Below are positions 10,732 through 40,477 of a DNA stretch of 40,477 nt, one piece after another. The notes beneath the pieces were generated by a model that saw nothing but the letters and a program-made list of their open reading frames with translations, searched no databases and had not been told where the DNA came from. The position numbers and the translations under genes are program-made. This DNA comes from Escherichia phage P694. How positions within the stretch are numbered: the first letter of the stretch is position 1; each line of letters starts with the position of its first letter. The DNA is taken from sequence record NC_028863.1, one strand, 5' to 3'.

Positions 10732-10792
10732 CCTTCGGGCTTCCTACACTTTAAGATAACTTTAAGTTCTAACTCTAAGAGGAAACAACATT

Positions 10793-12990: not shown

Positions 12991-13010
12991 TACGACTCAC
13001 ATATGGAGGA
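12988..13010 (+). promoter_or_regulatory. Phage-promoter-like sequence overlapping the RBS of the next gene
   Basis: TAATACGACTCACATATGGAGGA. Confidence 0.45.
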
Positions 13011-13017
13011 CACAACT

Positions 13018-13242
13018 ATGTTAAGACTTCACTTCAACAAATCTAATGGCATATTCTCTGCTCGTGGCTCTGACCGTTCTACGGTGCTGGCCTCTGAGAA
13101 ACATGCAGTCATCCCTAAAGTGCTTGGTTCGATCATTGAGTTAGCACCCCGTGTTCACGCTGTGATTACGACTGGCTTATATAAAGAAGCGACCACTGGC
13201 TCCCGGCCTTTCATCCCGGGTTCTCGTCACGCGTTTCCCTAA
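13018..13242 (+). CDS. Hypothetical protein (gene 1.5/1.6 position)
   Basis: 74 aa from ATG 13018 with GGAGGA RBS at spacing 7; the upstream ATG 13003 has no RBS. Confidence 0.55.
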   Translation: MLRLHFNKSNGIFSARGSDRSTVLASEKHAVIPKVLGSIIELAPRVHAVITTGLYKEATTGSRPFIPGSRHAFP

Positions 13243-13281
13243 AGTCCGTCTGGTCATTGCACGTATCAAGGAGGTGCTCTA

Positions 13282-13791
13282 ATGTCACGTAACACAGGAA
13301 GATGTGATAGCACCACGTACTGTGAAGCATGTAATGGTGACGACCGCTATCCGCATGTTGGTAAGCCAATAGTTAACAAACCACAAGATAAAGAGGGTGT
13401 TCTAATGGGACTGTTAGATGGTGCAGCTTGGGAAAAAGAAAACCCGCCAGTACGAGCAACTGGGTGTATAGCTTGCTTAGAGAATGATGACCGCTACCCA
13501 CACACTTGCCCACAACATGTTGGTAAGCCAATAGTTAACAAACCACAAGATATAGAGGGTGTTCGGACTCCGAGCCACTATATGTTGTTTGATGACATTG
13601 AGGCTATCGAAGTGATTGCCCGGTCGATGACCCGCGAACAGTTCAAAGGGTACTGCTTAGGGAACATCCTTAAGTACCGCCTCCGTGCTGGTAAGAAATC
13701 CGAACTGGCATTCTTAGAGAAGGACATGGCGAAAGCTGGGTTCTACGGTGAACTGTACGAGAAACATAAGGACAAGTGCTATGATTATTAA
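13282..13791 (+). CDS. 1.7: gp1.7-like nucleotide kinase with an N-terminal in-frame duplication
   Basis: 169 aa; residues 42 onward (MGLLDGAAWEKENPP...CIACLENDDRYPHTC...) match the T7 gp1.7 N-terminus as recalled, and the C-terminus (...KGYCLGNILKYRLRAGKKSELA...) matches too; alternative start ATG 13405 also has an RBS. Confidence 0.8.
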   Translation: MSRNTGRCDSTTYCEACNGDDRYPHVGKPIVNKPQDKEGVLMGLLDGAAWEKENPPVRATGCIACLENDDRYPHTCPQHVGKPIVNKPQDIEGVRTPSHYMLFDDIEAIEVIARSMTREQFKGYCLGNILKYRLRAGKKSELAFLEKDMAKAGFYGELYEKHKDKCYDY

Positions 13792-13954
13792 GGTCGAGTA
13801 TGTGGGTGAAGATGATATGATGGCACTAGTTAAACGCCATGACATATTCTTTGCAGAGCGAACATGGGACGGTAAGTTCTATAAGATCATGAACAAGCAT
13901 GACGAAGAAGTATATCTTTCACGTAACGAGGTGATTGAATATGACGATGCTTAA
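13781..13954 (+). CDS. Hypothetical small protein (gene 1.8 position)
   Basis: 57 aa from ATG 13781 (AAGGA upstream), overlapping the gene 1.7 stop. Confidence 0.5.
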   Translation: MIIKVEYVGEDDMMALVKRHDIFFAERTWDGKFYKIMNKHDEEVYLSRNEVIEYDDA

Positions 13955-14045
13955 ACCTAGCGAATGGTGTGAGCGTATGTTTGAAAAGACAGGCAACACC
14001 GACTATCTTGAATTATACAATCAGTGGAAGGAGAGAGGACAATGA
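13941..14045 (+). CDS. Hypothetical small ORF (34 aa) bridging the gene 1.8-like ORF and gene 2
   Basis: ATG 13941 with GAGGTGA RBS; its stop overlaps the gene 2 ATG (ATGA). Confidence 0.3.
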
Positions 14046-38692: not shown

Positions 38693-40420
38693 ATGGCTCT
38701 TAAAATTCGTACCGTAATGACTTACCCGCTGAATGGCTCTACTGTGGACTTCGGTATCACGTTTGAGTATCTAGCGCGTAAGTTCGTTTCGGTGACTCTT
38801 ATTGGTAAAGACCGCAAAGAGTTGGTCTTGAATCAGGACTTCCGGTTTACCACTAAGACTCAAATCACAACCACTCGTGCGTGGAGTCCATCTGATGGAT
38901 ACACCATGATTGAGATTCGTCGTTACACCTCCGTTACCGACCGTCTGGTGGACTTTGCTGATGGTTCTATCCTCCGTGCTTATGACCTGAACATTGCTCA
39001 AATCCAGACACTTCACGTTGCTGAAGAGGCTCGTGATTTAACAGCGGATACGATTGGCGTTAACAACGATGGGAACCTAGATGCGCGTGGTCGCCGCATT
39101 GTGAACCTAGCGAATGCTGTAGAGGATGGTGATGCTATCAATCTTGGTCAGGTAAAGGGCTGGAATGAATCAGCATGGAACTCTAAGAATGAAGCGGCAA
39201 CATCTGCCAACTGGTCTGCTCGCTGGGCGCAAGGTGAAGGTGTCATCGCTGATGGTCGCTACTCTTCCCGCCAATACAACGAATGGGCGATGGCTATTCA
39301 GAAGGATGTAGAGCGTATGCGTGGCCTTGTGGCTGCTGACGCTAAGTGGGCAGATGAGTCTGTCAACAAGGCAAAGAACTCCGAGAACGCTGCTGCCGCG
39401 TCTGCTACTGCTGCTTCTGGTGATGCTCGCTGGGCTAACGAATCGGCACAGAAGGCAAAGACATCTGAGACCAACGCGAAGGCTTCCGAAGAAAGGGCAA
39501 TCCTTGAGGCGAACAAGCTGGAGAACAACAATGCACTAGCGGCCTCTATCCGTGGAATCACTGGTAACGACGTTAAGTGGAAGGGTTCTCACCAGTTTAC
39601 TAACGGTGTCTCTATTGTTCGTGCTGACAACTTAGAGCACGTTTGGCGGCAGGGCTTATGGGCTGAAGGTAATGCGCTTCACTCCGACTTTGTTACCGAG
39701 CTTCCGGGTGGAGAGTTTGGTTCTGGTGCTTTCACTCATATGCACTTCGTATATCCAGTATCAGGGGTTCCTACTCTTGACATGTACCCACACACAACGT
39801 TCAACTCCAAGGTCGTAACAAAGTCGATGATTGATTCACAGGCTAACTTCTCTGGTGCGCACTCTGACCAGTACAACGACTATGCCCCACTGTGGCAACA
39901 GGTTCGTGCTTCGAGTGGTAATGAGTTCTTCCCGTTAATCAAACAGCGTTCCTATCAGGCTGGGGCTGATGCTCGCTCTTGGACTATGGGTATTCTATTG
40001 GATAACAACAGAATCGCGCAGTGGAACCTACTGACGACTAACGAGGGAGGTGTTGCAAATGCGTCCTATACGTGGACTCGTGATGGGGACTTTAATGCTC
40101 CTCGTCAGGTAGTCTCTGGCTCTTTCAGAACACATGGTGGTAGTGTATTAGGTGGCGATGGTAACATCACAGGCAGTGCATTCGGGCCTCAGAACAACAT
40201 TGCGGATTGGATTCGTGCCAACTTCCCCGGTGACATCTGGCTCGCCAACCCTGAGTGGTATCCCCACAATGGTAGCTATCAAGAACTTACTGTAGGCTCC
40301 GGTCACGTATGTACTGGTATCGTTCTGAACACTGGTGGCGTGTGCTCTGGTATGCAACACCGGGGTATGTGGATTGGGTATCACAACGGCGCGCAACGTC
40401 AGGTTGCCTCTATTGGATAA
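38693..40420 (+). CDS. 17: Tail fibre protein with conserved N-terminal tail-attachment domain and divergent C-terminal receptor-binding region
   Basis: 575 aa; residues 1 to about 150 closely match T7 gp17 (FEYLARKFV.VTLIG.DRK, RLVDFADGSILRAYDLN.AQIQT.HVAEEARDLT.DTIGVNNDG.LDARGRRIVNLANAV); the C-terminal half does not match T7 as I recall it. Confidence 0.93.
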   Translation: MALKIRTVMTYPLNGSTVDFGITFEYLARKFVSVTLIGKDRKELVLNQDFRFTTKTQITTTRAWSPSDGYTMIEIRRYTSVTDRLVDFADGSILRAYDLNIAQIQTLHVAEEARDLTADTIGVNNDGNLDARGRRIVNLANAVEDGDAINLGQVKGWNESAWNSKNEAATSANWSARWAQGEGVIADGRYSSRQYNEWAMAIQKDVERMRGLVAADAKWADESVNKAKNSENAAAASATAASGDARWANESAQKAKTSETNAKASEERAILEANKLENNNALAASIRGITGNDVKWKGSHQFTNGVSIVRADNLEHVWRQGLWAEGNALHSDFVTELPGGEFGSGAFTHMHFVYPVSGVPTLDMYPHTTFNSKVVTKSMIDSQANFSGAHSDQYNDYAPLWQQVRASSGNEFFPLIKQRSYQAGADARSWTMGILLDNNRIAQWNLLTTNEGGVANASYTWTRDGDFNAPRQVVSGSFRTHGGSVLGGDGNITGSAFGPQNNIADWIRANFPGDIWLANPEWYPHNGSYQELTVGSGHVCTGIVLNTGGVCSGMQHRGMWIGYHNGAQRQVASIG

Positions 40421-40432
40421 GGAGACATTATT

Positions 40433-40477
40433 ATGAAGATTTACAAAGGATGGAAGTACACTGTGGTTACTGATAAG
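40433..40477 (+). CDS. 5' end of the 125-aa post-fibre ORF (duplicate of 185..229; truncated by the window end)
   Basis: Identical to 185..229. Confidence 0.6.
   Translation, partial: MKIYKGWKYTVVTDK

Follow-up and report, generated by a model that had tools for sequence, protein, structure and literature searches.

Gene 1.7 of Escherichia phage P694 opens with an in-frame repeat, which raises the question of whether the gene duplicated part of its own start or acquired a second N terminus from elsewhere, and of how many proteins it might encode. The window analyzed here is the whole sequence record (NC_028863.1; 40,477 nt), which is a complete linear genome with an exact 229-nt direct terminal repeat at 1-229 and 40249-40477. 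P694 is a T7-like Berlinvirus, with ~92% identity to the genomes of the Berlinviruses P483, nasanit, and A7. The gene order ligase (1.3)/1.6/1.7/1.8/2/2.5 is conserved with T7 and its relatives, as seen from open reading frames (ORFs), Pfam matches, and annotation. With ≤4 mismatches allowed, the phage promoter consensus has no match between 11672 and 14232, so that genes 1.3 to 2 are on shared transcripts.

The 169-aa product of gene 1.7 is identical to YP_009204338.1, annotated as "nucleotide kinase" in Escherichia phage P694. A previous reading of the region, made from the sequence only, had proposed that it is a homologue of the gp1.7 nucleotide kinase. This is upheld by a DUF3310 match of 77.1 bits, against a Pfam gathering cut-off of 24, and by a match to PHROG 2585 ("nucleotide kinase"; E = 1.9e-60). 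As for the DNA that follows, the 57-aa ORF at 13781-13954 corresponds to PHROG 38524 and is ~98% identical in A7 and pO103, while matching none of the other loci compared (the 57-aa gene of L030, which lies at the same position, was outside this comparison). A separate 34-aa ORF (13941-14045) corresponds to the short DUF8272 "gene 1.8" of the relatives. The 13781-14045 block is thus another mosaic segment.

The repeat and its surroundings

The sequence-only reading had described a 46-bp segment repeated 162 bp downstream with one mismatch. The repeat is real and slightly longer, with two copies of 49 nt (R1 and R2 in the table) that are spaced by 162 nt (i.e., 54 codons) and lie in the same frame. 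The single mismatch, A13391 vs. T13553, sets an AAA codon (Lys37) against ATA (Ile91). A search allowing up to three mismatches finds these two copies only, where none is expected from 100 dinucleotide-preserving shuffles, and the 37-nt exact core ranks third in length among the exact direct repeats of the genome, behind the 229-nt terminal repeat and a 41-mer. The related flank noted in that reading is an 18-nt, 83% identical repeat coding for DDRYPH, offset by 147 nt and not by 162 nt. At protein level the block does occur twice, residues 11-40 aligning with residues 59-94 (positions 18-53 of the 55-aa module-2 query that was used) with 24 of 36 positions identical and six gap positions.

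Features of gene 1.7 and its neighborhood in P694 (window positions)
Feature	Position	Strand	Description
DNA ligase (1.3)	11782-12834
Gene 1.6	13003-13242		BC10 family
J1, gene 1.6/1.7 junction	13268..13284	+	AAGGAGGTGCTCTAATG: SD, ancestral 1.6 stop TAA, ATG 13282
Element in J1	13271		AAGGAGGTGCTCTAATG; true SD/start
Cassette	13273..13395	+	123 nt (41 codons); without counterpart in single-module alleles
Gene 1.7	13282-13791	+	From the ORF list; 169 aa, 19.2 kDa
First start	ATG 13282		SD -17.0 kcal/mol; top 0.1% of 954 ATGs in the genome
S-type N-terminal module	13282..13404	+	Codons 1-41; MSRNTGRCDSTTYCEACNGDDRYPHVGKPIVNKPQDKEGVL
DDRYPH-coding motif	13338..13355 (copy 1), 13485-13502 (copy 2)	+	18 nt, 83% identical
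R1, first 49-nt copy	13354..13402	+	Encodes HVGKPIVNKPQDKEGV
J2, joint	13390..13407	+	AAAGAGGGTGTTCTAATG: K-E-G-V-L coding sequence = SD-like element before ATG 13405
Element in J2	13393		AAAGAGGGTGTTCTAATG; joint
Internal start	ATG 13405		SD -10.7 kcal/mol; top 4% of 954 ATGs; GAGG 8 nt upstream, in frame
Internal ORF	13405..13791	+	Complete L-type gp1.7; 128 aa, 14.7 kDa
L-type N-terminal module	13405..13515	+	MGLLDGAAWEKENPPVRATGCIACLENDDRYPHTCPQ; aligns with the gp1.7 N termini of T7, Kvp1, and FE44
R2, second 49-nt copy	13516..13564	+	Encodes HVGKPIVNKPQDIEGV; 100% identical to L013
Element at R2 end	13555-13564		Module/core boundary; third copy of GAGGGTGTTC; element ATAGAGGGTGTTCGG
DUF3310 (PF11753) kinase core	13561..13746	+	Residues 94-155; Pfam E = 1.1e-21
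Gene 1.8 position	13781-13954		Followed by gene 2 and gene 2.5

Other exact direct repeats are located at 10759/11233 (41 nt), 11186/11663 (26 nt), and 5640/6236 (30 nt). The 41-nt and 26-nt repeats accompany three phage promoters (10711, 11195, and 11672; consensus AATACGACTCACTATTGGGA), which are ~480 nt apart. This suggests that a promoter-plus-flank unit has been triplicated upstream of the ligase gene. A promoter inside the 123-nt cassette was ruled out by the same lack of consensus matches between 11672 and 14232.

Upstream of gene 1.7, P694 departs from its relatives at 13215-13220 in gene 1.6, where it reads CATCCCGGGTTC and where A7, pO103, Kvp1, FE44, BP12A, and all metagenomic relatives read CATTCC-GGTTC. 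The extra G, at 13218-13220, together with a T-to-C change, generates a CCCGGG site. It also frameshifts gene 1.6, which stops at 13242 and encodes 79 aa. The frameshift is absent from all the relatives compared, in which gene 1.6 encodes 86-92 aa and its stop overlaps the ATG of gene 1.7. Either a real mutation or a sequencing error could lie behind it; being next to gene 1.7, the frameshift casts some doubt on the local sequence quality. If the frameshift is real, translational coupling from gene 1.6 to gene 1.7 is lost in P694. For annotation, the 169-aa product is probably real, and the adjoining gene 1.6 appears frameshifted.

Two alternative N-terminal modules and the joint between them

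The N terminus of gp1.7 exists as alternative alleles, S-type and L-type, each found ahead of a conserved core. S-type proteins begin with MSR....CDS.TYCEACNGDDR(F/Y)PHVGKPIVNKPQDIEGV, followed by the core, and L-type proteins with MGLLDG...CIACLE.DDRYPHTC..., again followed by the core. P694 has one of each. Its S-type module shows 82.5% amino acid and 86% nucleotide identity to the N terminus of BP12A gp1.7 (by tblastn and blastn, respectively), 80% amino acid identity to ESh2, and, over part of its length, ~76% to Kayfunavirus gp1.7 (e.g., that of LM33_P1), while L009 and L010 share the DNA of the 5' part of the cassette at 100% identity. In the S-type gp1.7 of the Salmonella phage BP12A (YP_009303660.1, 114 aa), the Shigella phage ESh2, and the Kayfunavirus LM33_P1, the N terminus corresponds to P694 codons 1-40, and the gene starts at the same SD junction. 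In those phages the module directly precedes the core, whereas in P694 it is followed by Leu-Met and then by a second complete N-terminal module. From Met42 onwards (residues 42-169), the P694 protein is built like P0123 and P0125, two stand-alone proteins of 127 aa, with 98-100% DNA identity. Segment by segment, identity to L013, which encodes P0125, is 98.2% for the L-module, 100% for R2, and 99.1% for the core.

The likeness of the second half to T7 had been noted from the sequence only, and alignment to T7 gp1.7 (NP_041967.1, 196 aa; DUF3310/PF11753) bears this out. The T7 gene occupies the same position, between gene 1.6 (BC10) and 1.8/2, and the two proteins share 80% identity over aligned columns, with a near-identical core running from PSHYML to the C terminus. 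When T7 and five Berlinvirus proteins are aligned, most of the columns from PSHYML onwards do not vary. Starting from Met42 (13405), the L-module of P694 opens like the T7 protein, with MGLLDG...CIACLE.DDRYPHTC. T7 differs in that its single module is followed by a long middle region (a second Cys cluster and ITLGEIRAMDPRK), which P694 lacks, and P694 differs in having an extra S-type module in front.

The boundaries of this extra module are well defined. When aligned with A7, pO103, Kvp1, and FE44, P694 shows a 123-nt insertion right at the junction of the 1.6 stop and the 1.7 start, between ...ATCAAGGA and GGTGTTCTAATGG; because the junction is repeated, its exact placement can be shifted within it. 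Three backgrounds show this clean insertion: in P694 compared with L013, whose stand-alone gene has an ordinary junction (AAGGAGGTGTTCTAATG) and no cassette, in L020 compared with the single-module L031, and in L012. In the last of these, the cassette is 97.8% identical to that of P694, and gene 1.6 is ~61% identical to that of P694 and 97% to that of ESh2. A GAGG(G)TG(C/T)TC element occurs three times in the gene region (see table). In all relatives, the gp1.7 start has the sequence and position of J1, and GAGGGTGTTC, coding for E-G-V where module and core meet, is similar to the SD/start sequence GGAGGTGTTCTAATG.

The first 41 codons, which the sequence-only reading had regarded as an added and partially duplicated extension, are indeed an in-frame addition relative to T7, Kvp1, and FE44. 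They are not a partial duplicate of the downstream copy, since their 5' two-thirds, 13285-13353, share only the 18-nt DDRYPH motif with it. The extension is instead the upstream module of the tandem alleles L009/L010 (100%) and is ~85% identical to the gp1.7 N terminus of BP12A and ESh2; hence, a fusion. To judge from these sequences, gene 1.7 of P694 is two alternative N-terminal alleles joined together, not an intragenic duplication, and the 49-nt repeat is present because the downstream allele of P694 is an L/S hybrid with the same HVGKPIVNKPQDIEGV linker. Apparent full-length tblastn matches to Kvp1 and BP12A are spurious, as they extend through two stop codons upstream of the ATG, and the relatives have no hidden upstream ORF.

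Distribution and origin of the tandem alleles

The tandem form is rare. Among 50,697 GenBank phage records, a collection from which P694 itself is missing, none covers the region and none spans the joint. The joint pattern gave 0 matches in IMG/VR and no match in Escherichia coli genomes, while three matches in JGI metagenomes and one in GTDB genomes show no gp1.7 homology and are due to chance. A 15-billion-protein collection contains the tandem form in three of its 90%-identity clusters. Seven of the 132 homologues that were fetched are distinct tandem proteins, found on ~27 contigs from at least five studies: P694 (169 aa), P0001, P0122, P0124, and P0127 (162 aa each), P0002 (158 aa), and P0007 (199 aa). 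All seven share the protein joint ...PQDKEGV(L/I)M... and the DNA joint ...GATAA(A/G)GAGGGTGTT(C/A)T(A/G)ATG, and their ORFs are open. The arrangement is therefore not confined to P694, its joint being common to six other protein variants in which the cassette occupies the same position. In these, the downstream gene is Kvp1-type or pO103-type, and the upstream module of P0002 is of the MSGCIAC type. P694 is the only tandem allele with a second HVGKPIVNKPQDIEGV linker, so the 49-nt repeat is found only there, and its exact combination (cassette plus 127-type allele) is present in one record only. Of the two caveats attached to the sequence-only reading, the phage-record searches speak against the arrangement being standard in related phages, and the independent assemblies against the tandem architecture being an assembly artefact. 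Having been assembled independently many times, the tandem architecture is a real, rare, and horizontally spreading allele.

This diversity extends well beyond the tandem forms. Across the 132 homologues, the region preceding the PSHYML core spans 25-158 aa; it is pieced together from short modules as a mosaic, and its alternative starts are numerous. At least six modules are recognizable among P0001-P0132, with starts that include MGLLDG, MGCIAC, MSGCIAC, MVCMAC, MSRN, MTYCDS, MSVNH, and MTEREQ. The N-terminal region of gp1.7 is a striking module-shuffling hot spot in an otherwise conserved small protein.

The anatomy of the gene, its donors, and the clean boundaries of the cassette in three backgrounds are direct observations. 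How they came about is most probably (with a probability of roughly 0.8) that gene 1.7 of P694 is a composite allele, in which short-homology recombination put an S-type cassette ahead of a complete L-type gene. Phages with different alleles would have co-infected the same host, and an out-of-register crossover would have taken place between the E-G-V coding sequence GAGGGTGTTC at the module/core boundary of one and the SD/start sequence GGAGGTGTTCTAATG of the other. The outcome would be an S-type module in frame before a complete gene, with an SD plus ATG recreated at the joint. Ordinary homologous recombination may then have carried the cassette into other backgrounds. We infer this mechanism from the sequence of the joint. 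It agrees with the behavior of T7, in which Studier and colleagues as well as Pierce and Masker reportedly described recombination and deletion at short direct repeats; the 9-12-nt homology at the joint and the 12-nt and 49-nt direct repeats in P694 are substrates of the kind known to drive T7 rearrangements. Deletion between R1 and R2 would produce an in-frame 115-aa S-type gene, similar to P0003, and a J1 x J2 deletion would bring back the L-type gene of 128 aa. The P694 allele thus looks like an intermediate that can be resolved to either single allele.

Two other origins were weighed against the composite allele. A simple tandem duplication in place, followed by divergence of the 5' part of the first copy, would explain why the 49-nt repeat is near-perfect, in frame, and preceded by a weaker DDRYPH repeat, but it is highly improbable. 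Instead of similarity along the whole unit, the units share the 49 nt and the 18-nt DDRYPH motif and are unrelated elsewhere. The remaining 72 nt of the first unit match the S-type N terminus of other phages, its 5' part being 100% identical to their upstream module and ~85% identical to the start of BP12A gp1.7, and a single mismatch in 49 nt, which indicates a recent event, is incompatible with such divergence in the adjacent 72 nt. Moreover, tandem alleles without the long repeat exist (the 162-aa forms), and the S-type genes of Kayfunavirus argue against the idea that S-type singles derive from P694-like tandems. The other possibility is an assembly chimera, in which reads from a tandem-162-type and a 127-type phage in a mixed lysate were mis-joined at the L-module or at the 49-nt repeat. 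The exact 169-aa protein does come from a single contig, no more than 113 nt of L-module separate the repeats, and the gene 1.6 frameshift, unseen in relatives, makes local errors possible. Nevertheless, we regard a chimera as very unlikely, because the cassette plus L-module was independently assembled in L009-L012 and L020-L029, and the L-module plus R2 plus core in L013. Only the combination is unique, for which one ordinary homologous exchange suffices; the identities of the individual segments fit a mosaic of natural alleles, and the genome closes with clean 229-nt terminal repeats.

As a composite allele, gene 1.7 of P694 is a sequence-resolved example of a phage gene gaining an N-terminal module, probably through an out-of-register exchange between an RBS-like coding sequence and a real RBS. 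Such a fusion stacks two alternative N termini in frame, and a working internal start would come with it automatically. The P694 tandem gene is a rare natural variant of a well-known and non-essential gene, and its importance is modest.

Translation starts, products, and function

The sequence-only reading had assigned a strong RBS to the first ATG and had noted that the internal ATG at 13405 has an RBS as well. Both are confirmed by the computed SD energies (see table), which rank the first among the very best in the genome and the second as moderate. At J2, the energy depends on the codon that carries the repeat mismatch: it is -9.3 kcal/mol with ATA (A13391 reverted to T), -10.7 kcal/mol with AAA, and -13.3 kcal/mol with AAG, the last being found in L029, where a synonymous AAA to AAG change yields TAAGGAGGG. 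That the changes at the joint go toward stronger SD complementarity suggests that internal initiation may have been retained. Alternatively, the shared Lys codon could reflect common descent instead of selection for an internal SD, and the AAG of L029 could come from ectopic conversion by J1. The other tandem alleles have an intact gene 1.6, the stop of which overlaps the first gene 1.7 ATG; this points to probable translational coupling there.

With a very strong first SD and a moderate internal SD, two isoforms are plausible, with predicted lengths of 169 aa (19.2 kDa) and 128 aa (14.7 kDa). Ribosomes would start at the canonical strong SD to make the longer form and probably also at the retained internal SD to make the shorter one. 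The kinase core is intact by DUF3310, PHROG 2585, and alignment, and by homology it would be a T7-type dTMP/dGMP kinase. Since both products would include it, both should be active dTMP/dGMP kinases like T7 gp1.7. In-frame internal initiation is found in T7 itself, in the gene 4A/4B primase-helicase. As in 4A/4B, an internal SD and in-frame ATG could yield a nested shorter protein in P694; the difference is that in P694 the internal start came along with a gene fusion and did not evolve within a single gene.

T7 gene 1.7 also has an in-frame internal Met42, with AAAGGAG ahead of it at a spacing of 8 nt. Purified T7 gp1.7 reportedly consists of two molecular-weight forms, both of them active (Tran et al., J Biol Chem 2012). 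The computed mass of T7 gp1.7 is 22,184 Da for the full-length protein and 17,711 Da from Met42; the former agrees with the size reported for the large form, and the latter is not an exact match to that of the small form. T7 gene 1.7 corresponds to 467-1057 of L019, and one natural homologue, P0117, starts exactly at the position of the T7 Met42. Both the AAAGGAG-preceded Met42 and the P0117 start fit the two sizes reported for T7 gp1.7.

Against two isoforms stands the possibility that there is a single functional product: either nothing starts at the internal ATG and the 41 codons are a translated leader without a role, or function resides in the 128-aa protein only, the long form being unstable. 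We find this doubtful, though it deserves some weight. The N-terminal region appears dispensable in nature, as seen from A7 (97 aa) and P0107 (98 aa), which have no Cys module at all, and from the P0117 start at the T7 Met42 position. The internal SD falls far short of the first in strength, and the upstream module is under relaxed constraint. The tandem alleles have pN/pS values of 0.68 (S-module), 0.90 (L-module), and 0.28 (core), with small counts that include only seven sites in the S-module; within that limit, polymorphism of the upstream module is relaxed and gives no sign that the extra module is useful. Conversely, gp1.7 canonically starts at the first SD/ATG, which is extremely strong, the ORF has stayed open in all seven distinct tandem DNA sequences, the changes at the joint move toward the SD consensus, and T7 gp1.7 reportedly has two active forms (Tran et al.).

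As for the structure of the product, AlphaFold2 gives a three-helix core with pLDDT 70-79, residues 1-100 with pLDDT 40-62, and a mean of 57.5; the model is confident for the core only and uninformative as to the modules. The isolated modules have no Pfam match at E values up to 10, a PDB sequence search found no relative, and PADLOC found nothing. The spacings C-x5-C-x2-C-x7-H and C-x2-C-x8-H-x-C, which might be those of metal ligands, are visible in the modules but prove nothing about zinc, and the N-terminal Cys/His modules show neither a Pfam match nor a confident fold that would identify a zinc knuckle or ribbon.

The dTMP/dGMP kinase activity is known for T7 gp1.7 only, as cited in a recent paper according to which T7 gp1.7 activates the defence protein Avs5 (PMC11897194). 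Gene 1.7 is non-essential in T7 (PMC9712115). One could imagine that the cassette, lying between two copies of the SD junction, is a portable module that is exchanged and stacked, and that an arms race with host sensors such as Avs5 drives N-terminal hypervariability. This is speculative, and we think it improbable. If true, dual initiation would lead to mixed oligomers with two N termini and altered recognition by the sensor, and the P694 allele would be a captured intermediate in allele switching, resolvable by deletion. In any case, the natural alleles (with no module, S, L, S+L, or longer N termini ahead of a near-identical core) constitute a panel for finding out which part of gp1.7 Avs5 senses.

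One further protein deserves mention. The metagenomic P0045 (125 aa), which begins MGLLDGDAWEKDYNHSHTCNKGGVPMVCMACLENDDRYPHTC..., contains GGVPM, which is similar to the ..GGVLM that results from translating the SD junction in the frame of gene 1.7. P0045 appears to be another, independent kind of N-terminal fusion at the SD junction, made via the AAAGGAG within the ...CNKG codons.
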